This document shows, piece after piece, positions 24,408-54,745 of a stretch of 64,000 nucleotides of DNA. Positions within the stretch are counted from its first letter, which is position 1. Every line of letters starts with the position of its first letter. This stretch comes from Cenococcum geophilum (taxonomy: Eukaryota): assembly GCA_050273025.1 (NCBI GenBank), contig CP158635.1, positions 19,654,001-19,718,000 of the forward strand. The letters are read 5' to 3'. The translations under genes were made by a program, and so were the position numbers. The notes below the pieces were generated by a model. The model was not told where the DNA came from. It did not search any database and was given only the letters and a program-made list of their open reading frames with translations.

Positions 24408-25562
24408 TCACTCAACAGGCTTCAGGATAATATTATCAATCAACCTAACTGCAATCATCCCATCCCCCACCCCGCAATCCTCGCCCTGCTGCGGCTCCTC
24501 CACAGGCATCATCTTAATCGCCCCACTCAGAATAGCCCCCCGCTTCTCATCGACCTCCTCAACCTCCTCCATGGTGTCGGGATCAGCGAGCGAAAGATAA
24601 TCAACCTCGAACCGCGCCCTCCTCCCCGGCGCCAGTTCCTCCTGTTCCGCCGCCACGCGGTCCGCGTGCTCGTTCGCCGGCCACAGGATATCCCCCCTGC
24701 TCCTCTTCCCCTTCGCATACTGCTCCTCAGCGCGCCGCAGCGCATGCGACAGCACAGTCGCGACAGCGCGCCGCCGGGCGCCCAGATACACGTTCCGCGA
24801 GCTCATGGCCAGCCCGTCGGCCTCGCGCCGCGTCGCCCCGATCCGCACCTCCGTCCCGAGATGGAAGTCCCGAACCAGCCGGCGGATCACGACGGTCTGC
24901 TGGACGTCCTTCTGGCCGAAGTAGACGCGCTCGGGGGTGCAGATGCTGAATAGCTTCATGCACACGGTCGCGACGCCGCGGAAGAAGACGGGCCGCGACG
25001 CGCCCTCGAGCAGGCTGCCGACCGGCGTGATCGTCACGAAGCTGCCGCGGCCCGGCAGCGACGAGTCCGGGGGCAGAGTTGGGTACATGGCCTTGGTCGT
25101 CGGCGCGAAGACGGCGGAGATCCGCCCCGCGCCGGGCGTGCTGGCGAGCGAGGCGTCGAGGCTCGCTAGCTGCGCCATGTCGGCGTCCCAGGTCTTCGGG
25201 TAGGAGTCTAGGTCTTCGTTTAGCCCGAACTGCGTTGGGTTCACGTAGATGCTGATGAAGACGTCGCTGTTTTCTTGCGCGGCTTGCCGCACCAAACTTA
25301 GGTGTCCTTCGTGCAGCGCTCCCATGGTGGGCACGAGACCCACGGTGCGGTTGGATAGGAGCAGCGAGCGTCGGTATTGCCGGAGGAGTGGGACGTCTCT
25401 AAAGATTTGGGTGGTGGGGGAGGCGGAGGAGGCGCGGTTAGGGGTTGTGGAGAGGTAGCGGCGGGTAGATAGCACTGCAAACTATTAGTATCTGAAGCCA
25501 ATGGATTGTTTCTGGGGAGCTATACCCCTAAGGCTCCGCAGGGTGTGGAGCTTGGTGGCCAT
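24408..25562 (-). CDS. PAN6: Pantoate-beta-alanine ligase (pantothenate synthetase) with likely mitochondrial presequence
   Basis: VPTMGALHEGH (HIGH-like), VNPTQF, FGQKD, GLAMSSRN and RLIDN motifs. Short exon 1 MATKLHTLRSLR splices in frame to ORF 24408-25475. Confidence 0.93.
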
Positions 25563-26079
25563 GGTGTTTTGTGGGGATGCAGCTGGCGGGTTTGCTTTAG
25601 GCTGCGGGATGGCTTTGGGGTGGAAGAGTGAGGACCGCCTCTCCTCTTAGATGCCTGGAGGAAGATGAGCTGACGGAGAAGGCCATTTCGTGAGCAGAGC
25701 GGAGTTTGGTCGTGGTGGTCTTCATTCTTCGCCGAAAAATCCATCACCGGAACACGCTCCAGAGTAATTTATCAGCCATTTAGATTAGGAGTGAGTGAAG
25801 GCACAACACCTCATGCATACCATCTCTTGAAAAATATTTCCCACCTCTAGGCCAGAGCCATTATTCTCAGGTTTAAACTCATAAAAAGCTCCCCAAATAG
25901 AACTAGTTCTGGTCCCAAAAGCTCAGCCGCCGCCTAGGGTTCGCCAGCTGGAGGTGGCTGATACCACTGTGGCTAAGTCCGTTTTTTTCTTTAAATGCAT
26001 GTCTTCCAACTAGTGCAATGCACTTGGCATTTCTTTTCATTTCATTTCCTTCCTGACTTCTGTAGGTGCCATTAGAGTT

Positions 26080-27699
26080 ATGGACGCAACGATTGAAGCA
26101 GCCAAAGGATGGCTCAAGCAATGCTTAAATGAGCACGAGTCGTGCCGGAAGAAGGCTCATCTAGCGACGATGTGGGCACACGGCTCCATCCATATCGTCA
26201 GAAACCTCGGTCACGATGATCGAATGCCGCGACGACTTCTGACATTCGACGCCGATTCCGTCAAACTTGTGGAAATCGGGAAGACCACCGAAGAGATCAA
26301 ATATTTCGCATTGTCACATCGGTGGGGCCCACATGAGACCTTCAAGACCACCGAGGCTACCATTGACGATTTTAAAAGCGGTTTCCCCATTTTCAATTTA
26401 CCAAAAACTTTTCGTGATGCTGTCGAAGTAACAAGAGCTTGTGGATACAAACACTTATGGATCGATTCTATATGTATTATCCAGGATAATCCCAATGATT
26501 GGAAAGAAGAATCTCCCCGGATGGCCATCGTTTACGGAAATGCGGTTTGCACAATCATGGCTATGGATGCCGAAGACAGCGACAGCGGCTTGTTCTGCCA
26601 CAGCACATTTAAAGAATCAGGTCGGCACAGTTCTGGCACCCTCAATTCACGCGCATGGGTAGTGCAAGAACGCATGATATCTTCAAGGACGCTAGCATAC
26701 ACCGAGAACAGCGTACACTGGGAGTGTCGAGAATACGATGCGACACAGAAAGAACCAAACTTAGTTAAGAGGCTGTTAAAAGACGACAGTGACAAACTAC
26801 CAACACATCCAAAGGACATCTTTGGGTTCTTAAGGGACTTCCGTATCAATGGAGAGAGCGAAGATTCTGCTTCAGACCTGCGTGAATTTATGGACTTCGA
26901 TGATGGTCTAATTGGGGAAAAAGACTCCTACGAACCCTTCCTAAAAACCTGGTGGCAGTTCCTCGAGCTTTATACCCCCTGTAACCTCTCGCATGAAGCT
27001 GACAAATTCCTCGCTATGAATGGAGTGGCAGCTGTTACGCAGCGTCACACGAGACTACGAAACACATGGGGCCTTTGGCGGAACTTCCTGGAACACGAAC
27101 TCTTATGGTCAATCGATCCTCAAGGGCCGCCATCAAGCCGACCGAAGCATTGGCGGGCTCCATTCTGGAGTTGGGCCAGTACTGACGGTGGCAAGGTTGT
27201 CAACAATTACTACAAACGCTTACCAGCCCTACCTCAGCTGATGATTAAGCCTGAAATCCAGGTTCCTGTCAACACTAGCTTCGATGAAAGATTACCCATT
27301 CCCGCATGGACCTTTATGAACTACGGCATGGTGCTAAAAGGCGATCTCCGAACGGCAGACCTCACCGTCACACTTGACGAGGGAGAAAATAGAATCTATA
27401 CAATCAAGCTGGAAAGCACGGGTCGCTGGTCTGAATCGGAAGAGCACGAGTTCCGGCCTGATGCGCCTATGCAACTTCGCACCACCTCTGTCCAGTGCTT
27501 CCTCGTTTTGCATTACGACAAGGGGGGGTTAGGCGGCGACTATTACGTCGATGTTCGCCTTGTTCTCCTATCAGTTGGCGGACCAGAAGATGACAGGATC
27601 ATGAAAAGGGTTGGGTATCTCGAGACACGGTATAAGGAGCAGCGTGATTGGGACGGTATTTATGAAGACTTATGGTGGAAGCATGTCGAGTTTCGATAA
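26080..27699 (+). CDS. HET-domain (heterokaryon incompatibility, PF06985-like) protein
   Basis: 539-aa ORF with WLKQCLNEHESC, YFALSHRWG, LPKTFRDAV, LWIDSICIIQD..DW..E..RMAIVY.NA, LNSRAWVVQER and WRAPFWSWAS. Confidence 0.92.
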   Translation: MDATIEAAKGWLKQCLNEHESCRKKAHLATMWAHGSIHIVRNLGHDDRMPRRLLTFDADSVKLVEIGKTTEEIKYFALSHRWGPHETFKTTEATIDDFKSGFPIFNLPKTFRDAVEVTRACGYKHLWIDSICIIQDNPNDWKEESPRMAIVYGNAVCTIMAMDAEDSDSGLFCHSTFKESGRHSSGTLNSRAWVVQERMISSRTLAYTENSVHWECREYDATQKEPNLVKRLLKDDSDKLPTHPKDIFGFLRDFRINGESEDSASDLREFMDFDDGLIGEKDSYEPFLKTWWQFLELYTPCNLSHEADKFLAMNGVAAVTQRHTRLRNTWGLWRNFLEHELLWSIDPQGPPSSRPKHWRAPFWSWASTDGGKVVNNYYKRLPALPQLMIKPEIQVPVNTSFDERLPIPAWTFMNYGMVLKGDLRTADLTVTLDEGENRIYTIKLESTGRWSESEEHEFRPDAPMQLRTTSVQCFLVLHYDKGGLGGDYYVDVRLVLLSVGGPEDDRIMKRVGYLETRYKEQRDWDGIYEDLWWKHVEFR

Positions 27700-28603
27700 T
27701 TCTATCAATGTACTAAATTGGAAGCCATGTTGGTCAACTCCCCCGTGGACCCCGAAGAGAAACAGTGCAGCTGGGGCGAATGAGAAATCAGCAGTAAAGT
27801 CGAGATTGGACCCCCACCATCTTCACTATTACAGTTCGCGAACACTTTCGCACTATGTTCGCAAAGGATTTATCAGATCACCGAATAGATATAGCGCGGA
27901 ATATAGATGAGAGGGTCTATGGGGAAGAATTTATGGAGCTCGATCGCTGAGAAAGATATCTACAAGGTAGCCCGTGCATTAGTCCGTCCCGAGTCTCAAG
28001 AGCTGCCCGCCTACCCCCAGGATTGGATGAGCGAGGCTGAATCTCACCTGAAGAGAGCCACGCAACAGCTAACTCTGAAATCTTAATTACGACCAACCTT
28101 AGCATCAGAGTTAGATTCACCTACTACACATTTTTAAATTATTAGAGTTAAAAACGGCACTCAGTATAGAGATGCATTAGCAAAATTAACCATAGCAGGG
28201 TGCTGTATTATCCGGTGCGTACCCTATTTCTTTCTATATATCTTTGGTTGCTTTGTTTCGCCTCTGACTAGATGCAGGTTTTGGCTCTATGCATTGATAT
28301 GCTCATGTCTGCCTCGTGCTTACTTGTTCGGTTAGCGTGCATACATCCGCATCCCGGGCAGGGTGGGGCATAATCTAATCGATAACGATTGATACGATAC
28401 GCGAGATCATATCATATCATATTATATTGATTGATTTTTTTGATCCGCCACTAAATAAGCCAGTAATCTACTATTATCCTTAGCTTCCCTACTAATTAGG
28501 TATCTTCTCTCTACCCTCTATTTATACTTTTCTTTATATAAGATACTATAAAATAAAATAAAAAGAGTAAAAAAGAGAGGAGATTAAAATTAGTAACTTT
28601 TAT

Positions 28604-29139
28604 CTATTCCTTAATATCTAGTTCTACAATCTAATCCTTACCCTCTAGTGCTCCCGCTGCCGCTATTATAGGCTAAGAATTTTTATTATACGATAAACAC
28701 TAAGCTCTATAATCCCGCCACTTGCAATTTCTATAGCACCTACTATAGAACCCTAAGAGACTCCGACACTTAGTAAAGGGGTAAGGGCCTATTAAACGAC
28801 GTAGAGTTGCCGTATAGGCCTTATAGGGCTAGCGTTAATTAGCTCTCTACCTTATATAAGTAATATAGGTTACTTATAATTATATTTAGAGATCTATAGC
28901 TCTAAATTAGAATTGCATTTATATATAAGGGCCTCCCCGTCCGTACCTGCTTCTTTAATACCCCTCCTACCTAAGCCTCTATATTAATTGCCGGTAAAGC
29001 TTTTACCCTCTTCTGCTTATCCTAAGAGTAGTTAGTTATATAGGTATATTATATAGAGAGGAGAGTTTACTTATAGTATGGTAATGTTGCTAAAGAATCT
29101 CTTATATAGTAGGACGGGAAGTGTACCAGATAATTGTAT
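28604..29139 (-). pseudogene. DUF3716-like Cys-rich gene carried inside the hAT 3' region (3 exons, RIP-mutated)
   Basis: Introns 29070-29022 (GTAAAC..ctaac..TAG) and 28877-28829 (donor G>A) give QVRTGRPLYINAILI*SYR | PYKAYTATLRRLIGPYPFTKCRSLLGFYSRCYRNCKWRDYRA*CLS. Reverting RIP-type changes gives RPSYVNAILIQSRG..PCxAC..GPxPFxEC..GFHGGCCGNCKWRDHGAQCS. Confidence 0.72.
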
Positions 29140-29571
29140 TTCCCGATTCTTGATAAAGGACGACGTTGGTGGGATTTAAACTTATAATTTATTAAGTTTA
29201 AAGTTAGTATATGTTTACCTATGCCACCTACGCGCCTTTAGTGGTTACCTTTTACCTAAAATTATTTTATTTATATATTTTATACCCCTCCCTTAGTGTT
29301 GTATAATATATCTCTTATATATTTTTCTTTATACGACTACTATATTTCTTTTAAAATTCCACTCCATCTTCTTAAGGTTCTATAATCTAAGCTATATTCT
29401 CTCCTATAATACCGTATAACGCCCTCCTGAAAATACTCTCTCTAGTTCGTTACTTATGGCTAGAATTAAAAGTACCTCTCTTGTAAAGAGTAAAAGCCAC
29501 AGCTAGCGCTTTATTTGTTGTTTTTAAGACCACCACTAAAGTGGAGAAACTTTAATTTTGTACAGTATTTT

Positions 29572-32500
29572 TGTTAGCGACTCAGTCAATCGAGGCACGA
29601 GCACGGCAAGAGGGACGCGCAAGCCTGTACAATTGGTAGTCTATAAACGAGGATCTAAAGCTAGAGAAAGGAAGGAGAAGAATAGCAGCGCCGCTTGATA
29701 TTTTATGCGGTCCTTAAGTCACGTGACCCGCGTCTACCATAATCTATGTCTGCTAAGATCCACCGTTTTCCACCAGCGCCGTAACATTACCCTCCCCCTC
29801 CGAAAAAGCCTGCCCTCAGGCTTTGTATATCCGTGTTATGTCCGTAGGGTATTCTTATCTTTATGCTTAGTAGGCAGCCTATCGTCTTCGCTATACCAGC
29901 ACTCCATCTACTTATTGAGGTACTTTAGGGGTCCGGGTTCGTTAGGGTATTGGTTGTGGAATTCTTTAAGCCTCTAGGGGCAGCCTATAAAGTTCCAGGC
30001 GGGGTACTAGGTTGGGTCTAGATCATAGCCTTTCTATTAGATACGGTATTGTAGCATTCCTTATACTAGTTTATAGGCTAGTATTTTATTAACTTCCTAT
30101 TCATTATCGCTATTAACTTAAATTAGTAGGGGAGGCTTATTCTTTTATCTAGGTAGTGGGTTATTTACAGCCTTTTGTAGCTTATCCGGCGAAAAGATAG
30201 AGTAAACCTTAATTAAGTCTAGGAGCTCAACCTTGTACGAGTTGCCTTCTTTATTAAGGATCTTATACGGTCCTACCATCTTATAATCTAGCTTACGGCT
30301 AGGCCGTTCTATCTTCTAGTTCTTTGTCGTAACCTAGACCCTATTATCTACAGTAAAGTCAGGCTCGCGCCTATGCTTATTTGCCTACTGTTCTATTAAT
30401 TTCTGGGCCTTTTCTAGGTTCTTACGGGCTACCGTCCAGGCTTCTTCTAGGCGTTTAGCGTATTGCTAGGCTTCCTTATAAGATAGTTTTTCGCGTACGG
30501 TCTGTGGGCCTTCCGGTCTATTCCAGTTAAAGCTAGTACGGAGTAAATATCCTATTTCTAGCTAAATAGGAGCAAACCCTGTGGAGTCATAGGGTAGGGT
30601 TACCTGGGCGTAGTCTATTAGGGGTAGTAGTTCGCCCCAGTTATCCTAAAAGTAGTTAACAAAGGGCCAGAGTCTCTAGTCCAGGTATTAATTTATAATC
30701 TCCGTCTAACCGTCTGTCTGGGGGTGGTATACTATAGAAAGCTTTAGCTTAATGCCGAGGATCCGAGTAAACTTATTCCAGAAGGCCGATATAAACTACG
30801 GCCCGTGGTCAGATATAATAGTATCTAGTGGTCCGTAAATTCGGTAGATATAATAGATGTATAGTCGGGCTACCTCCTTAGCATCAATATCCTTATAACA
30901 GGGGATTAAGAGCGGGCGCTTGCCAAAACGGTCAACTAGGATTATTACCATATTATATCCGTCACGGTCTGTAGGCAGCTTATAGAAGTCTATAGAGATA
31001 TGCTGCCAGGGGCGTTCTAGTATCGGGAGTGGCTTTAATAGTCCTAGAGTCTTATCTCGCGGAATTATAGACCTACGGCAGTCGTTACAGTTCCGTATAT
31101 AGCGGTTAATATCCATAACTATTTCGGGCTAGTAATATCGGTCACCAATAATTTTGCGGGTCTTATTCTTTCTAGGGTGGGCCGTAGAGACCTAGGCATG
31201 TGCTTTAATAATAAGCTAAGTCCGTAAGTTCTATTCCTCTACTACTACTAGCCGTTCCTAATGCTTAAGTAATCCATTTTCGAGGGACCATAGGCTGGTA
31301 ACGTTCTTTGCCTTTTTACGGTACTCCTGTAGAGAAAGGGCCGTACGGTTTATCTACAGTAATTCGTTAATTAAGTCAAGTCCTAAAGGGTCAATAGGAT
31401 ACATCTCGGCGCCTAAGGAGTCTGTACTTAGTTCTGCCTATATCTGGGGGTTAAAGTGCTCTGGTCGTAGTAGTGTCTAGGTCCATAATAAGATCTTCGC
31501 AGCCGTCTAGTTACCTAGGTCTTGTTTACGCCTTATAAGAGTATCCGCACGGTTCGTAGCGCCTAGTCTATATATAATTAAGAAGTTAAACTAAGATAGG
31601 ATATCCGCCCAGCGTGCCTACCGGGCCGTAAGGGCCTTGGTTGTTATAAAGTATTCTAGGGCCTTATAATTTAAAACTACCTTAATAGGCTTAGGGGTCC
31701 CCTTTAGCTATATACGCCAGTACTAAAAGCTAGAGATAATAGCCAGCATTTCTTTATTATGGATGTGGTAGTTTAGCTTAGCATCTATTATAGTCTTTAA
31801 ATAGTACGCAATAGGGTGCCATTCTCCGTCCGGTTGCTTCTGGGAAAAAATATCGGCTATCGCGCCGTCTAAGGCATTAGTTTTTAGCATTAAGGGCCGT
31901 TCTAGGTTAAAGTGGGCAAGTAGGGGAGCCGATACTAGCCGTTTTTTAAGCTCATTAAAGGCCTGTATATATATGGCGTCAAAACAGAAGGGCTGGTCTT
32001 TCCTAATAAGATGGTTAAGAGGCCGGGCGATCCTACTGTAGTTTTTAATAAAGCGTTAGTAGAAGTTACAGAAGCCTAAAAATAATTATACCCCCTTTAC
32101 GGTCCGTGGGGGTGCCTACTGGTTAATTATAGCCGTTTTCTCTAGGTTAGCCTTAACTCCGTCTATACTAATAATAAAACCTAAGTACTTTATACGCTTA
32201 ACACTAAATTCTAACTTCTTAATATTAGCCTGGAGGCCAGCCTTGCGGAGCCGTTATAGGACTTTATAGACGTGCTTTTTATATTTTAGCTTATTCTTAA
32301 AGTAAATTATAATATTATCTAGGTAGGCCGTATAGAAGTCGTTAAGGTAGTTAAAGAGTATATCGTTTATATACCGCTAGTACGTAGCTAGTCCGTTAGT
32401 CAGTTTAAAAGGAAGTACTTTACATTTATATATTCCGTAATAGGTCTAAAATATAGTAAGATTTTCTAATCTAGGGTTTATCCTAATTTAGTGAAAAGCC

Positions 32501-35489
32501 TAACGGATATTGAGCTTAGTAAAGATCTTAGCTCTACTTATTTGGGCTAGAGTCTCCTTAAGTAAGGGTAGTGGATAGCGGTCCTTACGGGTTATATTAT
32601 TAAGTTTACGGTAGTTAATACAGAAACGAAGTCCTCTATTTGGCTTTTTGGCAAAGAAAATAGGCGAGTTAAAAGGGGCTTGACTGGGCTTAATAAAGCC
32701 CTTATTTAGGTTATTAATAAGGTACTACTTTATAGCCTATAATTCGGCAGTAGACTGCTAACAAAGGGGGCTATAACTAAGGGTGTCTTCCTTATCTAGC
32801 TTAATCTTAATCTTATAGTCGTACGGTTGGTAAGGTAGGAGTATATTGGACGCTGCCTTAGAGAATATGTTTTTGAATTTCTAGTGTTAATAGGGTAGTT
32901 TCTATTCTACTAGCTCCTTATCCGTAAGCTTACTTTCCTATCCGCTAAGCTTGCTTTTCTTTTCCTTAATTATTTGATTAATTTTATATAAGCTAGTAGT
33001 AAGGTAACGGTATTAGGTTGGACTAAGTTCCGGTAGAATCCTACGGCGCTAATACAGCAGATATTAACTAGGGGAAGGTCTATAGGTTTCTTTACGGACT
33101 TTTATTAGGCCGTATTTTGCGGAATAGGGTTTATAGTCTTCCTTAGCTTACGTTTTATTTTCCGTAAGTTGTTCTTCTAGTCTATTAGTTTAGTATAGCA
33201 TCTAGTATTCCTAGCCTTCCTTTATAGCTATATAGGGCCTAAGTTCTCCACGGGGGACTTAGCTAGGTCACTACTAATTTCCTAGATTTTTAGTGCGGGT
33301 GGCGTAATATAGGTAGTCTAGGGGCGGTGTAGTATATAAATCCGTTACGGATTAAGCTGTACATCTTTCTTAAAGGCCTAGTCCCTACGTATAGTATCGG
33401 CCTAGTAAATAGTATTAATTTAGGGCCGTATAAGGTTCTTTATTATAATACTAATTTCTTTTATAAAGGAAGGGGTTAGGGGTAGGGATTTAGGCTAGAT
33501 AAGCCGTCTACTTCATACGTTAAGCTATAAGCCTAAATAGGCTAGCTATTTTCTTTTTAAGATTATATTATAGCTTCCTAGGTCTGTAATAAGAAAGGGG
33601 ATATTATACTGCCTTCGTCCATTAACACGGAGGTAGATCCGTAAGATAGTCGTAATAGGTAGTTCTATCTGTCCATTATACCCGCGAATAGGAACTGGTT
33701 TAGGCAGTTCTTTAAAAGGCGCATTAAAAAATTTAGCTAGCTTTATAGCGCACTGGGTATCTATTAAGGCAAAGGCATTTACTCTAGAGTTAGTTAAAGC
33801 GGAGGTTAAAACTTAATATCTATTGCGAAATAAAGTATAAGGGATAGTGCAGCTTCTTCTACTAACTAGCTGACTTAAATTAATATGTGATATATTAATT
33901 CCTTTTAACCCTAGAGAGGAGTTTTTCTCTAAAGTTCCTCTTTTTCTGGCTCTGTGCTATCCTCCTAAATTAATAGAACTTCGCCCGTTTTTACCTTTGT
34001 CTGGCAATCCTTTATAAAGTGGTCTTTTTGGCCGTATAAGAAGCAAGCTCCTTAATTGCTGAGGGCTTGTTTACGGGGGTTGTTATATATAGGCCAAGTG
34101 TACGCCAGACCCGTAGTAGGACTAGCTGTACGGCTAGCTGCTAAATTAATGGTAGGCTGTACAGCTAGTGCCGTAGGAGTTATAGATTGTGCTAGAGTGT
34201 TACGGGCCATTTGTATAGTGCTTATAGTTTGGTTTAGAGAGTTTCTAGCTTTATGCCGCTTAGCTTATACCTTAATTTAACGAAGGCCTTAGTTAATAGA
34301 TAGGCAGTGGTCCGTAAGTACCTTTAGTGTCTATATAGTAGTAAAAACTGGTAGTACGGCGCGCTGTAGGTCTAGGGTAAGCTTATTAAAGAGGTCTAGT
34401 ATTAGGTCTTTATAGGGAATTTGGGCTTGGCCGGCTAGGTGCAGAAAGCGGGTCTAAAAGGCTAAAAAGGTCTCCGTTGTCTTTATGTTAAGAGCTTTAT
34501 AATTAAGGCGGGCGTTCTGTATCTTAAAGGGGTCCTTATAGATGGAAGACAAGTAGTCGATCATCTCATCTCCAGAGAGGAAGGGATCTGCTAAGTCCTG
34601 GGCGTATCGCAGACGTAGGTGCGTCTGTGCGTCTCCGCCGATACGGCCGAAGACGTAGGCCATCTTAGCTTAAGTAGTGGGGAAGTGGTCCGTATTAACT
34701 TCGAGCTTATCCTGTAATTAAAGCTTCCAGTTATTAAATATAGGGTTAGTTCCGTCTGTAAGTAACGGGGGGTCTATAACCTTCGCGGACCGTAATAATG
34801 CTAATGCTGTGCGTTAGGCTAGGGCCTTAAGGACTATAGCAAGTCTCTAGGTATCTAATAACTCCTTGCTAGGTGTAGGGGTGTCTCTGGTTTTAAGCAG
34901 CTCTTAAAGCCGTTTAATTTCGGCATTGGCTGCTGCGAGCTCTTCCTGGGGGGTTAAGACGGCGACTGTTTTACTATTGGAGGTATTTGCGGGTCCTACA
35001 GCGGCTTTGCCAGCTGCTGTATTTCTTAGCATGGTGGTAGGGGTATTGGGTAATTTCCGGTGTTTATTTATTTTCTAGGGGTTCTGGTCCGTGCGTGTTC
35101 TATTCTTAGGTTTCGCGTTCTATTTGTGTTCTTTTGGTTCTTAGGTCTGTCCTGTCCTTGTGGTCCTAGTAATATCCTTAGGGTCCTGTTTTGTGTCCTT
35201 GTCCTGTTTGTGGTCTTATAGATAGATATATTTAAGTTCCTTTTTAGGAAGAAGAGTAGATAAGCTTTGGATAATGTTAGCGACTTAGTTAATCGAGGCA
35301 CGAGCACAGTAAGAGGGACGCGTAAGCCTGTACAATTGGTAGTCTATAAACGAGGATCCAAAGCTAGAGAAAGGAAGGAGAAGAATAGCAGCGCCACTTG
35401 ATATTTTATGCGGTCCTTAAGTCACGTAACCCGCGTCTACCATAATCCACGTCTGCTAAGATCTACCGTTTTCCACCAGCGCCGTAACA
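29572..35489 (-). mobile_element. Full-length Ty3/Gypsy chromovirus 1 (RIP-inactivated)
   Basis: 215-bp LTRs at 29572-29786 and 35275-35489 (TGTTA..TAACA); TSD ATTTT at 29567-29571 and 35490-35494; PPT next to 29787. Remnants of gag, protease (LTNSRVN), RT (AYLDNIII), RNaseH, integrase (HISIDF, SDHGP, YHPQTDG) and chromodomain (~29950-30110). Confidence 0.95.
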
Positions 35490-37329
35490 ATTTTAGAGTA
35501 ATAGTTATTGTACTTATCCTGGCTTACTAGTTAAGTAACCTTTTTATTTAATTTATTTATAATTTAATTGTACTTATTAAGTTCCTTATACTTATCTTAT
35601 AATAGCTTATTATATAATACTGCTTAAAGAGAGGTAATAGGCTTTTCTAATTCTTGGTATGTTTTCTAAAGCCGTTAGACCTTTAAAAGTATTATTTTTT
35701 TACTATTTCTTCTTTTAAAATGTCTTAATATACTTTATATAACGATTTAGGTAAAGAATAAGTGCAGTGGTGTAAAGAGGGGAGTTATCTATTCTCTGGT
35801 AGTACTTATTAAACTTCGCCTATATATTCTTTACTTAAAGTAAGAGAGCTTTATTTAATTTAAAGAGTGCCTATTATATAATATTAGCTTTAGCTTAAAT
35901 AAAGTACTTAAAAGAAGAGTTATATAAGAGAATTCTCTATATGTTTAATAAGTACATCTATTATAAAGAGTACTCGATTAAGTATTATATAATTCCCTTA
36001 TATCTCTAATATTGTACGGTAAAATAGCTTTAGAAAGGTATAAATTGTATAAAGAAGCTTTTAGTCTTATAGCGAGATATAATCCTCCTTAAGCGTATTA
36101 AAGTTGCTTTTAATATAGTTATTAATTCCTAACTTATACTTAAGTGAAACGCTTAGTATTTAATACTAGCTATTCTATCTTGTATAATTATTAAGTAGAA
36201 CTTATCTTCTAACTAAAGTCTTAAACTCCTTTATACAATTAGCTAAGGTATAGAAGTATATTATAATATTATAAAGCTTACTAAGTAGGCTTATTGCTTA
36301 GAAGGTATTACAGACGCTTTAAGTACAATATTACAACTACTAGAAGAAGAGTCGGAAGAAGCTAGTTAGTTAATTTAGGCATGGTCCAAGATAGAGCTAA
36401 TAGAACTATGTGACAAGAAATAGTAACTAAGGTCACGTGGGGTGATCTATATAATCTATGGGATCTATATAATCCGCAACAAAGTAGATAGAGCACACGT
36501 ACATTACGTACAAGAAGAATTTTATAGGAGTACGGTTGTGTATTTAAGGACCCTTAGTCCCTACCTAGATAGTTCCTTCCTTGTAGTAATTCTCAGAATA
36601 TAATTAGAGTTAATCTGTTAGGCAACCACTCCACTAGTTATTATTACGTTGTTAACTTTTGTACTTATATTTCCTACACACCTAGCCTAATAATAGGACC
36701 CATCGTAGTTCTTACTACAAGGTTCCGTTACACAATCACTACCTAGTTACAGTATCAATATAGAAAGTCGAATAACATGCCACCAAAAGCAGCCACTATA
36801 ATGCTATCGACGGCGGCAACTACTTCGAGGTTAGTTAACGACACTAGTATAGTAGACACTAACTTATAGCAACCTATAACGGTCGGACAACTATAAGAGA
36901 TAGTGGACTAGTTGACAGAAAATAATATAACGTTAGAAAATAGGATTAACGGGATAGGCGCAGCAAAGGTTAAGTTACTATCAATTAAAAGATACTTAGA
37001 AGAAAAATCAAAGCTTAAAGGATTCCTTATATAAATGCACTTTAAGGTAGTACAGGAAGGAGTAAAGCTGGTAACACCTATAGATTAAATAGCCTATGCA
37101 GGACTATTCTTAATAGGAAGAGTACTTAAATGGTTTAAGCCTTATTTTATAGAGATATAAGTAAACGGCATAACAACTACCAACTAAGAGGTACGGTTTA
37201 TGTTCTTAAGCTAGAATGGATTTATAGAACGGCTTACACAAATATTTAGAGACCTAGAGGCAATAACTACGGCGGAAAGAAAACTCTAAGACATTACGTA
37301 ATAAACCTTAGCAATTAAGTATACAATAC

Positions 37330-40300
37330 TGTAACCGACTACCGGTACTATGCCGAGACATAAGGCTGTAGCCTGGAAGGCTCCAAGACAGCATTGGCAC
37401 TACCTTCGTATATCTCGCATACCTCATATTATGGCTTAAATGAGTTAAAGATTAAGTTATAGACCCTACTGTTAGGGCTTTACTTTTGTGTATATATTTC
37501 ACCTAATTTCCATAGATTTATAATTAAGTCGTTTATTTAATTCTCCTATACTATAAAGCTTACAGTTATAAGCCCGGGTTGTACTACCTGCTAAGCAATT
37601 AATCTATTACCTTATTTAAGAAGTCACTACTTCTATTACCTTTGCAAGTGTCTTAAGCTTCTTTACCTATCAAACGAACGAACGGTTGACCCTAACTGAC
37701 GTACCCAACTGATGAACGAATTAATGAATTAAATTAAGAGTTTGGAACGTTAAAATAAGGTTTTTGCTAAGCTACTAATTGGACCCTGCCTAACCCCATA
37801 AATCCTAAAAATAACAACTATTAACGAATTAAAAGTTAACCTTATCCTTAACTAGCCATCCAATTGGATCCAATAGTTCTTTATTATCTAAGATACAGCT
37901 ATAACTAATGAGGTATAGAAGTATATCGACCTATCCATAAAAGACGAGCTTCTAAAGCTAGAACTACCGTATCAACCCGTATTAGCAGACATACTTCCTA
38001 ATGCCATATTAATAGCTTAACTGGACCAAATTAAGCTCACTGCCTATAACTAGCTCTACGCCGAATATAAGGATAATCTACGCGTACACGAGAAGCAAAA
38101 ATAGGCTATAAACGATATTAGCAACTACATTGTTTGCACCACATCGGTAGCCTACCTTCCACTCATTAACGGCCTCAACACGGTACATGAACGGCTTTAA
38201 GCATTAAAGACTGCACTTGCCCCTACCTCCTCAGGTTAAAAACACAAGGTCCTTAATTAATACACGGCTTTAAAATCCTACAATAAAAAGCAGAGTATTA
38301 AAAAATGGTTAAATAACTAGCGGAACGTCTACAAGCTTGTGGAGCAATTAGAGCTTTTAGACGTTTAGGGATTTAGAGCATACTATAATTTCGTTTAAGT
38401 AATTAAGCCAATCTCTTCTAGCTTTGTAGGAGCTCTAGAAGTAGACCTTATTTATAAGGAATAGAAGGGCGAAAATATACTATCTATTATTAAACTAATT
38501 AAGGAATTTAAGGAGCACTACCGTATGCAGCAAGTGGTATCCTCTGCTACCACTACCAATAGCTCTGCATTTGCAACCCTTTAAAATAATTTAAATTTTA
38601 ATTTAGATTCCAATAGTAATTCTAATTCCAACGGCAATTCTAATTCCAATTTAAGATGGAATAAGAAATGTATATACGGCCTCGTACATCGATTTAACGA
38701 CTGCTACTATATTGCTAAGAAGAAGCGCCTATAAGGATAGAAACCAAACCTAGACGTCCAGAAGGAAGTAGAAGAAAAGATCTTATCTACGCCTTGGATT
38801 AAACGTATAGTTAATTATATCCAAAAAGGAGGACAAGAAGTAAAAAAGGACGCAGAATCTATAATTAATTTTGACTCCAAAACCCCACCTTCTATAACAC
38901 CGACTAGCTATGCTACCGTGTTTAGTACTGGTTAAATTCCATTTAAACTCCAGAATACCTGGATACTTAACCCTAGTGTAGATACCTATGTCTATAATAA
39001 TAAAGAAGACTTTACCTTCTTATACCTAGTAGTAGAAGACGACTACCTAATTGCTGGCGGAAATTTTAAAAAGATTTAAGCTTATGGAATAGTAACCATT
39101 ACTGTTAATACACCTACTGGGAAGTTAAAAATGAAGCTATCCCACGTAGCACTAGCACCTACCTTTTTTATAAATATCGTAGCATTTTTAAGAGCTACTA
39201 ATAACGACATCCATTTCGACTTAGGACGAAACTTACTATACCGTCTAGCAACTGGCGAAATAGTATGCTATGCGAGATAACTAGGGGGCTACTGGGCACT
39301 AATACACAGACAGCCTACCCTAGATTTAATAACTCAATCGACCTTCTTAACAAGAAGACATCAACTAAGCAGAATGGCCCGTAAACTAGTCGGAGCTACA
39401 GCTACAAAATGGCATAAAATACTTGGCCATGTAGGACCTAACGCTATTAAGCAGCTTCCTAAGCACGTTAATGGCGTAGAGCTTAAAGAGCTAATTAACG
39501 AACGAGCACCGCTTAAAGTTGAATATGAAGTTTGCTTATTAGCAAAGCACACGCAGTAGATCTCTTAAAGACGAGAATATGAATATCTAGCTACTCGACC
39601 ATTCGAACGGCTCGCGTTTGATATTATTAACCTCGGAGTACCTAGATACAACGGCGATAGATATATTATGTATTTCTATTACACGTATTCCAAATTTAAC
39701 TTTGTGTTTACCTCTAAGAATAAGGACAAAGCTACTGTCCTACCTACCATCCGAAAGACCCACCGTTTGATTAAAATACGTTTCCACCAAGACGTCGTCT
39801 TCTTCTGGAGCGATGACGAACGAGCTTTTGGACAGACAGGAGACACCTTACAGACATGGTGCGCAGACGAAGGCATTACTTTTGAATGCCGAGCCCCGTA
39901 TACAGAAGAACAAAATGGCGGAGCTGAACGATCTGGACGAACCCTCATGGAACGATCAAGGGCTATGCAGCTGGAAGCATCCTTACCCCCGTCTCTAGGA
40001 CCAGAAGCCTTCCTTGCTGCTGGCTACGCACTCAACCGAACCCCAAATGAGCAACTAGGATGGAAAACTCCGTACGAGATCGCCTACGGCAAGACGCCAT
40101 CACTTACCCATATGCACGTATATGGCTGCAAGACCTATACGCTGGACAAACGAGTCAAAAAGGGAGATAAGCTAGGTCCCCGTGCATTGATTGGACACCT
40201 AGTCGGCTACGATTCGACCAATATCTATCGAATCTGGATTCCAAGTCTCTACAAAGTCATCCGAACCAGAGACGTTATATTTGACGAGACCTTGTTCTAT

Positions 40301-42875
40301 GACCCCAAAGGTCAAGACATCGACTACCTGCTAAGGGAAGCATTAGAAGACACCCTCCAGACAATTAGTCTACCAGAACCTCTCCACGAGGATGAATCTA
40401 AGGATGAATCTATCCTATATAGACCTACCTCGAATGCAGATTAAACGACTACACCTGAATCAAACGATTCGGCAGAGCCTCGTATGAAGGATACTGAGCA
40501 GTTACCGACTCCTAGTAGAACGGTATCTCCAGATCTACTAGAAATAAATACTACACCGGGAGGACTTTAAGACGATATCTTGGATATAATTAAAGCAACC
40601 CCTACCTAGTTAAGCTCCCTAGAACCATCTAATAGAGCAATTAATATAGCTCTACGAGCTAACGAAGTCTCGGCCAAACCTTCTGCCGACCTTATCCTAC
40701 TAGAAGGATCTAAACGAATTCGACGTTAAGCACATGCGATAGCACTAGCCAATCTATCTACCCTATTTGGTTACTACGCTGGATTTGCTATAGGATTAGT
40801 AAAGGACATTAGCCGAACTAGATCCTTATCCTTATCTCTATATTGGGACAATCTTCCTCCTAAACCAAAGAACCTTAAAGAACTAAGAAAGTATCCTTTA
40901 ACTACTGGCTTTTAAAAGGCTATGGAAAAAGAATACAACGACCTAAAACGCCGAGGGACATTTAAGACTGTACCAAAGGCAGAAGTATGCAACGAGCAGA
41001 TCCTTCTACTAAAATGGGTCTTTAAATATAAGCTTAACAGCGACGGCTACCTATAAAAGCTTAAAGCTTGACTGTGCGTCCGCGGAGACCTGTAGATCAC
41101 CGAAGAAGAGACCTATGCAGCAACCCTAGCTGCTCGAATATTCCGTGCCCTTATGGCTATAGCAGCCGCATTCAATTTGGAAATTCGACAGTATGACGCC
41201 GTAAACGTATTTATAAATGCCAAGCTTAGTAAACTAGTATACTGCTACTGCCCAGAAGGATTTAATTAAAATGGATATATCCTAGAGCTACTCATGGCGC
41301 TATACGGACTAAAAATATCACCGCTACTGTAGTATAAAGAGCTCACTAGTACCCTAGCTAAATTTGGATTGAAACCTATCCTAGGTATTAACTGCCTATT
41401 TACCGATGGACGACTTATTGTCTTCTTCTACGTAGACGATATTGCCGTTCTATTTGCCAAAAAGGACCTTTAAAGACTCGAAGAATTTGAAGCCAAATTA
41501 CTATAACGATACGAGATCCGTGCACTAGGAGACCTACAGTAGTTCCTAGGAATTTGAATTGAACGAGATCGAGTAAGTAGAAAGCTCTGGCTCTGCCAAG
41601 ACTCCTATATCGAAAAGATAGCTAATAGATTTAATATTTAACTAGGCAGATTTCCTAAGTCACTACTTCCTGCCGAAGAACTGATTCCGTCCGATTAATA
41701 GACGAACCCTTAAAGGACCCTAGCCTACTAGTAACGAGTAGGGTCTCTTACACACCTTACCGTATTTAGAAGACCTAATATTATAAAGACGCATTCCAAG
41801 CTAGCTGAATTCCTCACCAATCCAAATTAGGGATACCTTGACGCAGCAAACCAAGCTATAGCCTACTGCCTTGGAATAAAATCTACAGCTATTGAATACT
41901 TAGGGGAAGCTTTTAGAGCACACGTCTACTTTAGAAACCCCAAAGGAGAAGACGTTACCTTTTACGGAGTATCTGACGCAGCATTTGCGGACCATAAAGA
42001 GACCAGACGGAGCTCTTAAGGATATCTTTTTATCCTATTCGGAGGCCTAATTGATTGGAAAGCAACCCTACAGCGATCTGTTACTCGTTCGACTACCGAA
42101 GCAGAGCTTCTCTCCCTATCTACTGCTGCCGTTGAGATTATCTGGTGGCAACGATTCTTTGAGGCAATCGGCTTTAATTTAGAACGCGAATTTACCCTGC
42201 TATGCGACAATATGTAGACTGTACGCCTTCTTAAATAGGATACACCAAAACTCGACACCAAGCTTCGACATATTGACGTCCATTAGCACTAGCTTAGACA
42301 GGAAATCTAAGACAAAAAGATTGACGTACGATGGGTTCCTATAGACAAAATGCCTGCCGACGGCCTTATAAAAATCTTACCTTGTTAAAAGCACGAAGCA
42401 TGGATAAAGCAGTTAAATTTGGTAGATATTCGACATTAGATTACTACTGCATTATCTAGCAACTAGTATCATTGCAATATTTGCAATATCCGCAATATCC
42501 GCGATATTCGCAATATCAGTCACGGTTACCCCATCCTTTTGCTACTCCCAAATTGTATCTAAATTTCCTATTTTGGTATAGCCCCTACCTTTATTTTTAT
42601 TTTCTATAGCTTTAACTACACCGTTAAATCTGGGGGGGTGTGTAACCGACTACCGGTACTGTGCCGAGATATAAGGCTGTAGCCTAGAAGGCTCCAAGAC
42701 AGCATTGGCACTACCTTCGTATATCTCGTATACCTCGTATTATGGCTTAAATGAGTCAAAGATTAAGTTATAGACCCTACTGTTAGGGCTCTACTTTTGT
42801 GTATATATTTCACCTGATTTCCATAGATTTATAATTAAGTCGTTTACTTAATTCTCCTATACTGCAAAGCTTACA
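37330..42875 (+). mobile_element. Full-length Ty1/Copia retrotransposon nested in the Gypsy 2 gag
   Basis: 235-bp LTRs at 37330-37564 and 42641-42875 (TGTAAC..CTTACA); TSD AATAC at 37325-37329 and 42876-42880; PBS GTTATAAGCCC; PPT GGGGGGGTG. Integrase ORF 39668-40444 (EEQNGGAER) precedes RT (FYVDDI ~41425-41442) and RNaseH (SDAAFAD), the Copia domain order. Confidence 0.96.
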
Positions 42876-45800
42876 AATACAGTTCCAGACATTAGTAATA
42901 TAAGTTAAGTGGAATAATAGGGCGCTTATAGCATAGTATAAACAAGGACTTAAGGCTAAAGTCTAGGACGTAATTATCCTAATGGAAGATGCGGACACCC
43001 TAAGGGAACTAATAGATTAAGCGATTAAGATTAATAATTAGATCTACTAAAGGGAACAGGCTAAGAGAGGCTAGGATAGAGTTTTATAGTTATATAAGGC
43101 GCAGAGTACGCAACAACAGAAGCTAAGTTAAAAACTATGGTATGGCGTAAAGCTAATGGACCTTAGTGGTACTAAAGAAGCCTATAAAAGATAGAGTAAG
43201 AAACTATAAAAACCTAAAGGATAAGGATTAAGTGATTAAAGGTCTAAGGAGCAGAGGCCGAATTAGGGATTTTAGTAGTAGAAGACGTTTAGGCGGACTC
43301 TATAGCAAGAAAAATAGTTTAAAGAAGGAGCTTGCATAAATTGCGGAAAACAGGGTTATTATATTAGAGACTATAGAAGTGGGCAGAGTTACTATATAGT
43401 AAAAGGCACGAGACTAGCAGATGATATATACGTATAGAGGGACGACAATATACTATAAGGAACAAAAGAATATTCAATTAAAAGTTTTGCGTTCTATTAT
43501 AACAACGTATACCGAATTTATAAGGACGCTAAGTACGGCGCAAGCTATTAGCTATAAGAGCTAGCATCTATAGAATGCAAAGGAACCAATAAACCAGTTC
43601 GTAGATCGGACATTAAGGACAATAACTTCAATGTAGGCAAAACATTTTATAACAATAAGGTAACGAAGGCGGCTTACTAGGAATACGCAGACCTTAGAGA
43701 TGTTATACTAGAGGTAGAGGATAATTCCACTATAGAATAGGGAACATTAGTAGGGATTAAGACCCTACTAGATACGATATCTATCGCTTTACGAGACGCA
43801 AGAGAAGTAGGACAGTAAACCACTTTAGCACTTAATAAAGGCAAAAGGCCAAAGGCTTAAGATTCTTAAGATAAAATAAGAGATAACTAAGATTCTTAAG
43901 ACAAGATAAGGTAAGCTTAAGGACCTACAATAGACAAAAACCGATGGAGCAGAGCAGCAGCTTAGTTTAAAGATATATAAATAAGCTCGGGACAGAGATT
44001 CCCATAGGCATAAGATTCTCAAAAAGAGATAAGTGAGATTTAAGACTCTTAAGACAAGATAAGAACACTAAGCAAGCCTAGTTAGACTAAGGCTAAAGCT
44101 AAGCTTAAGTTAGGAGCAAGCTTAGGATTAAAGAATCTAAGGAATTAAGAATTTGGAGTATAAATTAGGACATCTATAAGTAAGAGGTAAGAGGCTTCTT
44201 TATAGATTAGAGAATCTGTAATATAAATAGTAACTAAACTAGGAGACAGATATATAGACCTAGAGGACTTACTAGTAGAATATAGTGTTTGGACTAAAGA
44301 TTAAAGAGTTAATACTAAGATTAAGAAGTAAGAAGACTTTAAGGATTAGAGCGTAAGACGCAAACTAAAAGAAACTATAGAAGAATTTAGAGTAAGAATT
44401 ATTGCATAGTAAGAACAGAAACTAGATAAGAGATCTAGTATATTAGGACGTATAAGGGACAGAGCGCTAGTATAAAGAATTACTAATAGGTTAAGAGTAG
44501 GCACACTAAAAGCTAAGTGGCTTACTAAACTAGAAGATAAAGAGGATTTAGGGATCCCTATTAGGTTTAAAGAACGATATATAAAGGGCTATTATAATAT
44601 AGTAATAAGAAGATACTTCCTTACGGACAAGCTATATATACTCTAGCAGCTATACTAAAAGTGGTATAGGCAAAGGCACAATAACGAGTGGGAAGATTTC
44701 TATATATAGTTAGATAAAAAAGTTATCTAAGACCACCTAATTACTAAGAAGGCTATAACTTACATTAAAGAAGCCTTAATTATAACGTTAAAGGATCTAA
44801 AGAAATAATTAGAGGACTAGAGAAGTAAGAGACGCATTTTAGTACCCGCGAATAAAGTTATAACGTTTAGATTAGCATAACAGAGGTTTAAACTTAAGGA
44901 TAAAGATAAGCTAAGAGTTAACCTAAAGCACCTAGTATACTATATGTTATTATAGATTGCGTGCGTAGACAACATATATAAAATGTATAAGAATCCAAAG
45001 GAAAAGAATTAGAAATACCCTATAAGGATATACTGGATAATAGATAAGTAATAGTATAGGAATGCTAAATACATATATAGATGGCATCTAGTAGAAGTCT
45101 AAGAGGAAGGGGATTTAATACTTTAACTAGGAAGATTTCTTACGGAAGAATGCTTAGATAGATAATAGTAGTGGGAATGCCTAAAGAATACGTATCTATA
45201 GTATATTAAAGATAAAAAGTAAACTAGGTATTAGCTGAAGAGCGAGCTAAGTATAATAGGATTAAGTAGCTAATAGTTAGGAAAAGTAGAGGCCTACGGA
45301 ACTAGAGGGAGCTAGTAGTAGAGCCTTAGACCCTTAAAGGAATTTAAGGATAATACCTAAATTTACGAGTTAAATAGTAAGATCAGCAGTTTGAGGCGCT
45401 AATAGATAGTGGAGTAACGTGAAACTATATCTTATTAATAGTAGTTAAGAGAATAGGACTACCTTATAGATAGAAGGAGCAACCTTACTTATTAGTTACG
45501 ATTTTAGGAGATCTAATAGCCTATAGAGGAGGGATCATTAATCTTAAAATAGGACCTATTTAGTTAACTATTAAAGAGAGACAAATTAAAATATCTTTTA
45601 ATATCCTACTATTGGGACGGGATAAGGCAGTATTAGGGATGCCTTGGTTATAGGAATACAATCTAAAGATCGATTAGATTATAGGTTAGGTTAATATTAG
45701 GGATACTTAACGCCGCAAAATGTAATAATAGGCTAAGTTAGTATAGTACTAAGTCGGAGCAATATATAAAGAGACTAAGTAAGGCTTAAGCTATATACCT

Positions 45801-48679
45801 AAGAGATACTATAAGTATAGCAAGAAACTATGGTCACTAGAAAGTAAAAAGCTATTAGCGTATATAGTATGGGACTATAAGATAGAATTGGAATTAGAAA
45901 CAAGTCTAAGGTTTTTTTTAATCTATAAGCTTACTAAAGAAGAAGGTAGAGTACTAAAAGAGTTTATTTAGGAAAACTTATGAAAGGGATATATTAGACT
46001 ATCGCAGTTATTAGCGGGTTATCCAGTACTATTTATACTAAAGAAGAATAGCAAACTAAGGCTATATATTAACTATAGATAGTTAAATAGCATTACTAGG
46101 AAGGATAGGTATCCTTTACCCTTAATTAGCGAAATCTAAGATAGGATAGGTAATGCGCAAATCTTTATAAAGATAGATCTAAGATAGGCGTACCATTAGA
46201 TTAGAATTAAGGAAGGCGATAAATAGAAGGCAGCCTTTAGGTTAAAGGAAGGACTATATAAACTATTAGTTATATAATTTAGGCTTATAAACGCACTAGT
46301 AACATTCTAAAAGCGTATTAACAATATATTAGGAGAACACTTAGATAAATTTATTATAGTATATCTTAACAATATTATTATCTACTTAATAACTAAGGAA
46401 GAATATGGAGAATATGTTAAATGGGTCTTAAAGAGACTATAAGAAGAATAGATGCTAGTAGTAATTAAAAAATACAAGTTCTTTACTAGGAAGACCAATT
46501 TTATTAGATTTATTATTAAACTAGGCCAACTTAGTATAGATCTAAAGAAGATTAAGGCTATAGTGAATTAGTAAGAACTAGAGAATGTTATACAATTAAG
46601 ATCGTTTCTAGGGTTTTGCAATTACTGTAGAAGGTTTATAGCGCAATAGTTAAAGGATATTAAGCTATTTACGCGACTAATAAGGAAAGAAGAACTATAG
46701 GTATAGGGAGAGGAATAGTGAGAGCTCTTTAAGAAAGTTAAGGAGTTATTTACCTAGGAGCCAGTTCTTAAAATCTATTAACTAGGACTAGAAATGATTA
46801 TAGAGACGGATGCATTAGACTATATACTAGGGGCGTGCTTTATGCAAAAATACTAAGATAAATAGCACCTAGTGGTATACTATAGTCGGAAGATAACACT
46901 ACTAGAGTTAAACTATAACATCTATAATAAGGAGTTATTAGGTATAGTTATAGTATTAAAGAAATAGAGAGCATTCTTATAAGGCATAGAAGAACTATTT
47001 ATAGTTAAGACGGATTATAAGAACCTAATAGGATTCCTAATAATAAAGGAACTTAACTAAAGATAGGTTAGATAGGTAGAGATGCTTATAGAATACTATT
47101 TCAAGATTTAGCATACTAAGGGTACAGATAATATAAGGGCAGACGCTCTAAGTTATAAGGCTGAACTATAAAACGATAAAAAGCTATTAGGGGCTTTACT
47201 GCGAAAAGATATAGACGGATTGATTAGGTATAATTATCCAAAAATTATAGCAACTTAGGAAAATAATGAGTTAGAAAAAGTCTACGAGATACTAGAAAGC
47301 TTTTAGGTATAAAGAATTCTAAAAGCATAGCTAGAAGATCTATAGACGGATATATATAAGAACTGAGAAGTAAAGTATATCCTAAGAAGTATAGTAGAGC
47401 AGTTTATAGAGGACTTCTATAAGGGACTAACTTAAGGACATAATAGAGCTACGGGCTTAGTGTTAAGACTTTAAGAGGAGTACATTATTAACGGAATCTA
47501 GAGGATAGCTAGGAAGGTCACTAAGGAGTATCTAGATTGCTAAAGGAATAAACTAATAAGACATAAGCCATATAGAGGGCTATAACCTATTAAAATACCA
47601 GAGAGACTATGGGAGGTCATATTATAGGACTTTATTATTAAGTTGCCAAGATTAAGAGATCCTATTACCGGATAAGATTATAACGTAATCTTAGTAATAG
47701 TAGACAAGCTTATAAAGTAGGAATACTTTATAGCATATACGGAAGAAATCTTAGCGGAGGATATCGCTAGAATTTATATTAAAGAAGTATTTATAAGATA
47801 TAGAGCACTAAGCAAGATTATATTAAATAGAGATTTAAGATTCATAGTAGTATTCTAAGAGGTATTCTTAGCGGAGTAAGGAGTTAGAGCAGCAACTTTT
47901 ACCGTATATTATCTATAGATAGACGGTTAAACGGAAAGATTAAATTAGATACTAAAGCAGTATCTAAGATATTATATTAATTACGTACAGAATAATTGGG
48001 TATCGCTATTACTAGTTATATAGTTTGCATATAATATAACACCTTAAGAAGGAATAGGCATATTACTATTTAAGGTAAATTATAGATATAAGCCAAGAAT
48101 ATTATTATTACTACAGCAAGTAAAGAAAATAAGTAGCACAGCTAAAGAAAGAATAAAGACGTTAATAAATCTTTATATAGACTTTATAAAATTAGTGAAG
48201 AAAGTACAAGAGAGAATAAAAAGGTACTATAACGCTAAGAGATTTAAGGGACTAGATCTTAAGGAGGGAGATAAAGTATGGCTACTATATAAAAATTTTA
48301 AGAGTTAACAACTAAGCAAGAAGTTAGACTACGTTAGACTAGGACCTTTTAAAATTACGTAGAGAATTTCACTAGTTACGTTTAAGTTAAACCTACTAGC
48401 TAGAATAAAGATCTACCCTATATAGCACATTATAATGCTAGAGCCAGTATATAGGAATATTAAGCTACTAGTTTATAAAGCAGATACATATAGAGGATAA
48501 GAAGAAGACAAATAGTAAGTTTTAAAGATCGTTAGTTATAAGAATATTAACAACAAAATATAGTATAAGGTTAAGTAGATAGGCTATAATAAGACTACCT
48601 AGGAACTACTAAAGAATTTAAAAAACGCTATAGGAAAGGTATAGAAGTATCGGAAGAGATTAGGTTAGGCAGTATTAAA

Positions 48680-54743: not shown

Positions 54744-54745
54744 TA

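Follow-up and report, generated by a model that had tools for sequence, protein, structure and literature searches.

A hAT transposon of Cenococcum geophilum carries a DUF3716 accessory gene and a ladder of YCGTACGR palindromes

Fungal transposons are confronted with RIP, DNA methylation and heterochromatin, and by what means they remain active is a standing question. The genome of Cenococcum geophilum (178 Mb on 7 contigs) contains repeats with strong RIP signatures, and the window that we analyzed, a stretch of 64,000 nucleotides from contig CP158635.1 (positions 19,654,001 to 19,718,000 of the forward strand), holds one such repeat, a decayed hAT transposon. hATs are generally presented as transposons with a single gene. 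A first-pass annotation, made from the letters of the window, proposed that this hAT encloses a second, spliced gene of the DUF3716 type in addition to its transposase. The locus therefore raises two questions: whether the second gene belongs to the element, and what its product may do there.

The hAT spans positions 28359–51038 and measures 3.2 kb once nested retroelements are removed. Its 3’ end is formed by a TIR at 28359–28380 (+ strand), followed by subterminal ATCGTATCG-like repeats, and its 5’ end by the partner TIR at 51017–51038 (− strand). The former has this single partner in the window, with 2 mismatches, as compared to 0 expected from 100 shuffles. The 8-bp TSD ATCCCGGG is identical at both element ends (28351–28358 and 51039–51046, + strand), so that the 22-nt TIR pair and the TSD bound the element where the first-pass annotation had placed one of its borders, and have the short form and the 8-bp length of a hAT. 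A second copy (L002/L133) has a TSD with 1 mismatch. The transposase is read from the minus strand in three parts: a 5’ part with a BED-like zinc finger (49841–50879; weak zinc-finger matches only), a middle part with a probable intron near 35870–35925, where the frame switches (35495–36305), and a 3’ end containing the dimerisation region and the stop (29340–29571), which in the window copy carries a 23-nt deletion. Three nested LTR elements foreign to the hAT, each with its own 5-bp TSD, account for the rest: a RIP-mutated LTR retrotransposon at 29572–35489 (TSD ATTTT), an LTR element at 36306–49835 (TSD GAAGG), and a further one inside the latter insert at 37330–42875 (TSD AATAC). Other copies of the hAT are uninterrupted across both nested-insert breakpoints. 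The PF05699 dimerisation domain scores 17.7 and 19.5 bits on RIP-damaged sister copies, below the cut-off of 21.4, and intact relatives from metagenomes share 42–58% identity with the RIP-reversed transposase of this family (family 1). Family 1 numbers at least about 40 copies, as a search with the 1.2 kb at its 3’ end, in which 40 of 277 candidates were scored, found 43 matches.

Two observations concern the surroundings of the element. The hAT has inserted near the 3’ terminus of a HET-domain gene that is expressed (26068–28500, + strand; PF06985, 93 bits) and whose contigs from three RNA runs splice 28214–28276, read into the TIR end and stop at 28420–28500; in run X1, which represents a divergent strain, reads continue from 28348 into sequence resembling the far flank, and this strain seems to lack the insertion. 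Separately, positions 54741–55587 form a large inverted repeat with 331-nt arms (88%), which is itself enclosed by 61-nt arms and has internal hairpins, an architecture that probably marks a foldback or MITE-like element.

The second gene lies between the transposase and the TIR at 28359, on the transposase strand, where the peptides RPLYINAILI*S and PFTKCRSLLGFYSRCYRNCKWRDYRA*C that were first noticed are indeed encoded. Its structure was modeled from 30 aligned copies and their RIP-reversed consensus, which gives a clean reading with six cysteines. In the direction of transcription (minus strand), the first recognisable exon (29075–29188), whose frame is the one matched by intact relatives, is followed by intron 1 (29022–29074; 53 nt), a middle exon that encodes the RP-Y-INAILIQSRG helix (28878–29021), intron 2 (28829–28877; 49 nt), and a last exon (28604–28828) that contains the six-cysteine domain, an acidic tail and the stop. 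The introns contain decayed palindromes at 29049–29056 and 28852–28859, respectively. Two 49-nt introns and a product of ~145 codons had originally been proposed. The second of these introns is borne out, as the segment from 28877 to 28829 is 49 nt long in 30/30 aligned copies; the sister hAT family 2 has no interruption at this site. The first one had to be redrawn: judged with a profile of relatives, exon 1 joined via the 53-nt intron (donor 29074, ending at 29022) adds 8–11 bits over a model with no exon 1, whereas the 49-nt intron (donor 29070) adds only 0–1.4 bits, and the exon frame that goes with it begins with ATA and ends with TAA in 30/30 copies, which rules out both the shorter intron and its frame. 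The donor of intron 1 reads GTAAGT in 7/30 copies and is AT-mutated in the others. A conserved branch site and acceptor stand directly before the exon at 29188, pointing to a probable further intron at 29189–29248 (− strand; acceptor TAG in 26/30 copies), and in the intact tandem locus L172 the transposase stop is followed by several short intron-like stretches and then the main exon. The start of the gene thus lies in another exon further upstream of 29188, and the gene comprises at least 160 codons, with exon 1 in a different frame from that first proposed.

The copy in the window is dead. Both of its intron donors are mutated to AT, and its 160 codons are interrupted by 7 internal stops (2 in the first recognisable exon, 2 in the middle exon and 3 in the last, which also has a 3-nt deletion). 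Relative to the RIP-reversed consensus it shows 91 G>A/C>T changes as compared to 1 transversion and the one 3-nt deletion, a count that agrees with the RIP-type decay noted at the outset but is partly circular, since the consensus favours G/C. The intact copy that the first-pass annotation suggested looking for is absent from the 77 protein matches in this genome; every long match contains stops, and those free of stops are either short fragments or a distantly related gene of host type. In RNA reads from 4 runs mapped to 25500–29571, depth is low over the DUF3716 gene, the contigs are unspliced, and the reads are mostly antisense, assuming the usual library strand rule. No spliced joint was seen at the introns of this dead copy in the 4 runs, in which the intron of the neighbouring host gene was seen. 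For a copy of family 3, a further hAT family described below, no RNA data set containing it was listed.

The exons of the window copy, taken alone and also as unspliced frames, match no Pfam family, and the identity of the gene comes from its sister copies and relatives. Exon 3 of one copy, L019, matches DUF3716 (PF12511) at 24.5 bits (cut-off 22; 3 of 13 copies match), a sister copy from family 2 at 29.4 bits, and the intact relatives in 146 of 146 cases. Conversely, a profile built from the intact relatives detects two stretches of the window, at 25.0 and 21.3 bits, both of which lie in this gene, and finds nothing else in the 64 kb. Judged by these sequence matches, the second gene is a DUF3716 gene, as had been recognised from its motif string, and its product belongs to the RPSY-INAILIQSRG branch of the family. 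The protein is laid out as a compact core of ~110 residues ending in six cysteines, which are conserved in at least 90% of the 146 sequences, and a variable acidic tail. This tail frequently closes with a short stretch of hydrophobic and acidic residues, for instance VVELED, which may resemble a SUMO-interacting motif. Named relatives were found in Lindgomyces, Blastomyces, Histoplasma and Coccidioides, and the profile picks up 1,180 clusters at 50% identity. A sequence search of the PDB gave 0 matches, and the Protein Atlas returned one row of an unnamed family at 0.81, a lead at best.

To what extent the gene belongs to the element was judged from copies chosen by the transposase 5’ end, i.e. 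the end of the element opposite the gene. Among the 29 non-self copies collected in this way, the DUF3716 segment is present in 27, and the other 2 are broken by other DNA. Nineteen run straight into the gene, 4 are elements already among the loci of the 3’-end search, and 4 show the gene once more flanking sequence is included; none of the 29 runs from the transposase straight to the TIR. The profile of relatives detects the gene in 28/30 family-1 loci. It is also found in two further hAT families of this genome: in tandem behind the transposase in family 2 (3.57 kb, with its own TIRs and an 8-bp TSD) and convergent with the transposase in family 3. Beyond this genome, 28 of 80 metagenome loci adjoin a hAT transposase, 6 in tandem and 22 convergently; the 80 were kept from 340 confirmed loci and include many near-duplicates and one or two that are probably family 2 itself. 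TIR pairs, among them three further TIR types, enclose both genes in 10 of the 21 metagenome loci examined, 5 of which have an exact 8-bp TSD. As a control, the gene occurs within 1.5 kb of 0/30 of the best-scoring other hAT loci in this genome. Among intact relatives dN/dS has a median of 0.21 and is below 1 in 23/23 usable pairs (7 of 34 loci, which contain stops, were left out, and pairs were limited to a pS of 0.03–0.62 and at least 70 codons); the intact hAT loci are related to one another, and their counts are not independent. The gene therefore lies inside the TIRs of this and related hATs and is under purifying selection, and the transposase is not their only gene. Beside family 2 there are also short derivatives (L087–L093) that match only its ends and are probably non-autonomous elements.

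Against this background we considered whether the gene might be a host fragment captured once and carried as passive cargo, or else a set of C-terminal exons of the transposase. The exon reading draws on the transposase frame of family 1, which runs into exon 1 across a 60-nt gap, and on two predicted proteins (P0084 and P0128) that fuse the domain to a transposon enzyme; capture could draw on a few host-like DUF3716 loci in this genome that are free of RIP. A dN/dS of 0.21 and the occurrence of both orientations speak against cargo. As for shared exons, the spacer after the transposase stop varies between 89, 90 and 91 nt as exon 1 keeps its 114 nt in 29/30 copies, and in L172 intron-like stretches separate the transposase stop from the main exon. 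The two orientations, the spacer variation and the L172 layout rule out a transposase fusion, one-off capture or passive cargo is largely refuted, and we regard this group of explanations as highly improbable. Instead, the DUF3716 gene is almost certainly an integral, once-functional accessory gene of the element, as the first-pass annotation had proposed. The gene is not peculiar to hATs; relatives of it are found in several classes of transposon.

The element has a second feature that extends over its entire length. The RIP-reversed consensus of family 1 (3,259 nt) contains 12 exact copies of the palindrome YCGTACGR, as compared to 0.2 in 300 shuffles, and 7 further sites with one RIP-type change fill most of the gaps in a ladder with steps of ~140 nt. 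In the window copy all 19 sites are decayed and together span 28686–50768. The first bases of these 8-mers are 28686, 28810, 28852, 29049, 29102, 29329, 29412 and 29558 at the gene end, 35610, 35735, 35874, 36045 and 36231 in the middle transposase part, and 49900, 50045, 50174, 50319, 50615 and 50761 in the 5’ transposase part; they are thus distributed over the transposase ORF with its intron, the spacer, and the exons and both introns of the DUF3716 gene. Family 2 has 9–11 sites. Intact hATs carry 17–24 sites in about 3.3 kb, in all three frames, so the ladder does not rest on RIP reversal. In 8/8 intact hAT transposase ORFs the number of sites exceeds that of 1000/1000 synonymous-codon shuffles, and in ORFs of other elements it exceeds all synonymous shuffles in 9/10 cases. 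The pogo-type locus L140 has only 1 site in its transposase ORF, a number reached by 62/500 shuffles, and its sites lie mainly around the DUF3716 gene. The palindrome ladder is thus selected at the DNA level, beyond codon needs. The median spacing is 142 nt, and 68% of 189 intervals measure 105–185 nt as compared to 21% at random; the nucleosome repeat is ~155–175 nt, and 142 nt is short by comparison.

Gene and ladder co-occur among hATs. The 30 control hAT loci of this genome have 0–3 exact CGTACG per 3.2 kb, and the absence of a ladder is meaningful in the 13 that RIP has scarcely affected; in L141 the second hAT, which lacks the gene, has 0 sites. In the vicinity of the gene, the top palindromic 6-mer is CGTACG at 39 of the 80 loci, TGTACA at 22 and TATATA at 13. 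The TGTACA-top loci (L168, L182, L184–L186, L188, L190–L192 and other JAABU* loci) show the form expected once both CpGs decay, and six of them show Gypsy-type domains. CpGs within the motif are neither spared nor lost more often than others in the same context: they are kept at a rate of 0.28 in family 1 as compared to 0.37 for context-matched CpGs (P 0.14), and at 0.43 as compared to 0.48 in family 2 (P 0.54). Genome-wide, paired palindromes number 74 as compared to 41 for a control pattern, and occur mostly in unrelated short-repeat elements; elements of this kind, rich in CCGTACGAACG-like units, are abundant and take up many places in the genome. The Gypsy-like insert in the window keeps 3 exact CGTACG. 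Another cluster, at L266:6066–6138 (G000:C3:15055000–15064999), has seven near-palindromes 9–18 nt apart beside a hAT dimerisation domain, and no DUF3716 gene was found near it in 10 kb.

The gene is carried by elements other than hATs. Thirty-four non-hAT loci were listed for ORFs, and those with no informative neighbours show host genes or nothing. Gypsy-type neighbours are found at L154, L156 and six decayed loci, and other carriers are of the Copia (L170), pogo/Tc5 (L140) and Crypton-like NDC10 (L167) types. At L145, L148, L201 and L207 the gene stands beside ORFs with OrsD or DEAD-helicase domains and within dense ladders; we presume these loci to be telomere-linked-helicase-like. In a tree built on 107 columns with 29 DUF3716 sequences, from which 52 of the 80 loci were omitted as near-duplicates or unclassified, hAT-borne genes are interleaved with those of other elements, with weak deep nodes, and the orientation of the gene flips between the tree sisters L172 and L187 (support 0.98). 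The gene-plus-ladder module is portable between transposon classes. In a Helitron family of this genome (PIF1, Helitron_like_N), a GC-rich DUF3716 gene from another branch lies tail to tail with the Rep/Helicase gene (the L031 family: G000:C3:22805317 and 23 more, i.e. 24/30 loci of one genome search; also L065:3800–9990). The 6,154-nt consensus of this Helitron contains 0 CGTACG, and a k-mer ranking for a substitute motif returned simple repeats, alongside a modest enrichment of ACTGCC and CCGTAA. Distant branches of DUF3716 are represented by three host-like loci free of RIP (L039, L042 and L047).

To gain insight into what the protein may do, its structure was predicted with AlphaFold2. The model has a pLDDT of 85.5 overall and above 88 for residues 21–130, and its tail is loose. 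When the cropped domain was compared with 48,161 chains, only Gal4 and HAP1 reached Z ≥2, both at Z 2.0, with rmsd values of 2.5 over 39 residues and 1.9 over 35 residues. Foldseek returned a single row for the whole model, again HAP1 (E 9.8, probability 0.04), and none for the cropped model; the whole model gave no fold match by VIA. The predicted domain thus weakly resembles Zn2Cys6 DNA-binding domains, and only these. As in the Zn(II)2Cys6 proteins Gal4, Hap1, Leu3 and Pdr3 (PF00172), the six cysteines are arranged as two C-x2-C-xn-C units, and they would form a comparable two-zinc cluster. The domain differs from the known ones in that its first loop is longer, that a helical portion is added at the N-terminus, and that the cysteine cluster closes the core on its C-terminal side. 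Profile–profile alignment by hhalign with nine Zn2Cys6 domains gave only 1.5–2% probability, hence no homology link, and PF00172 is absent among the 25 of 35 families listed for the 146 relatives. The protein may nevertheless work like a zinc cluster though it is not filed as one, and a DNA-binding role is a candidate suggested by this faint likeness of fold.

Combining ladder and fold, we propose that the DUF3716 protein is a putative element-encoded reader of YCGTACGR, a palindrome that can be seen as two everted CGR triplets (YCG-TA-CGR). Occupancy of one site per ~140 nt would keep the whole element open or unmethylated, allowing the transposase to be transcribed. Zinc binding, motif recognition and chromatin opening are here inferred from sequence, the predicted fold and analogy, and we consider the chances of the complete scheme to be about even. 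The ladder-less Helitron with its DUF3716 gene, L140 with 1 site in its transposase ORF, and the low scores of the fold matches tell against it. An extension is put forward more tentatively, with odds that we place somewhat short of even: fungal elements of both classes may share a portable licence consisting of a zinc-cluster reader gene and about one site per nucleosome, the sites being written into coding sequence through synonymous codons, such that an element which gains the two parts could stay open within silenced chromatin and elements could serve each other in trans. In this genome every long match among the 77 contains stops, which indicates that the system did not protect against RIP.

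An alternative is that a conserved host factor reads the ladder, in which case the DUF3716 protein would have a different task, for example as a chromatin or SUMO adaptor acting through its acidic tail, or as a helper of transposition. From hATs to Gypsy, Copia, Crypton-like and helicase elements the motif stays the same, and this identity between very different elements suits a conserved host binder equally; the Helitron has the gene without a ladder, DUF3716 and Zn2Cys6 proteins have no sequence-level link, and a tail ending such as VVELED would fit an adaptor. Gene-less hATs could use a host reader too, yet the 30 other hAT loci have neither gene nor ladder and the gene-less hAT of L141 has 0 sites, and we think this alternative unlikely, if a serious one. 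It is also conceivable that the protein, once bound to the ladder, holds the element back, as copy-number control or timing, instead of shielding it from silencing. Sites inside the transposase ORF and its intron, at which binding might impede transcription, are in keeping with restraint, as are the 22/28 hAT loci in which the gene is convergent with the transposase and the cost in spores that expression of REP9-1, a DUF3716 gene of another transposon, imposes on its host (PMC8232023). The ladder also runs through the gene’s own exons and introns, however, and coverage of the whole element suits a role in chromatin; restraint appears rather improbable to us.

An element-encoded reader that keeps its own element open, if real, would give DUF3716 a function and would mean that sequence-specific counter-silencing crosses transposon superfamilies. 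The finding provides a testable pair, a domain of 110 residues and a site of 8 bases, and the ladder is a practical marker for such elements even when decayed (TGTACA, TATATA). If the protein does make chromatin accessible at this site, it could serve as a small device to maintain transgene expression in fungi. The window copy itself is a fossil, and its value lies in the intact relatives to which it points.

Transposons with accessory genes have been described before, and DUF3716 in a transposon is already published. REP9-1 and REP9-2 are DUF3716 genes inside the TIRs of REP9, an IS3EU-like transposon of Zymoseptoria tritici, where, as here, they stand beside a transposase in a fungal class II element; they are expressed (PMC8232023). 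REP9 differs in having four genes, an IS3EU-like transposase and a 6-bp TSD, and the likeness is one of description; the accessible part of that paper mentions neither a motif ladder nor DNA binding (PMC8232023). A DUF3716-bearing hAT or a ladder of this kind was not found in the literature searched, which was largely without subscription papers and Repbase entries. The brtn gene, an antisense, extra conserved gene of Boty Gypsy elements in Botrytis, is carried by a retrotransposon (as cited in PMC7264820). Among host genes, the Neurospora protein NCU05718, the named ortholog of the DUF3716 protein PSC58 of Fusarium graminearum, is described as binding double-stranded DNA directly, the bound sequence being the telomere repeat (PMC10776026, PMC4650311). 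The layout YCG-TA-CGR is everted, like the CGG-type sites reported for the zinc-cluster proteins Leu3 and Pdr3 (PMC10954478). The first-pass annotation had pointed to VANC, the anti-silencing proteins of the Arabidopsis VANDAL (Mutator-like) elements, and that analogy has gained a candidate target, the YCGTACGR ladder, and a weak likeness of fold; by analogy, the DUF3716 protein may bind it and counter silencing. Both systems have a conserved accessory gene inside the element, whose product is paired with a short motif enriched in that element (for VANC, PMC5735166). However, the VANC motifs, as described there, form tandem repeats in non-coding parts and vary between families (PMC5735166), whereas the hATs described here use one palindrome, in single sites that lie mostly inside ORFs and are common to several transposon superfamilies.
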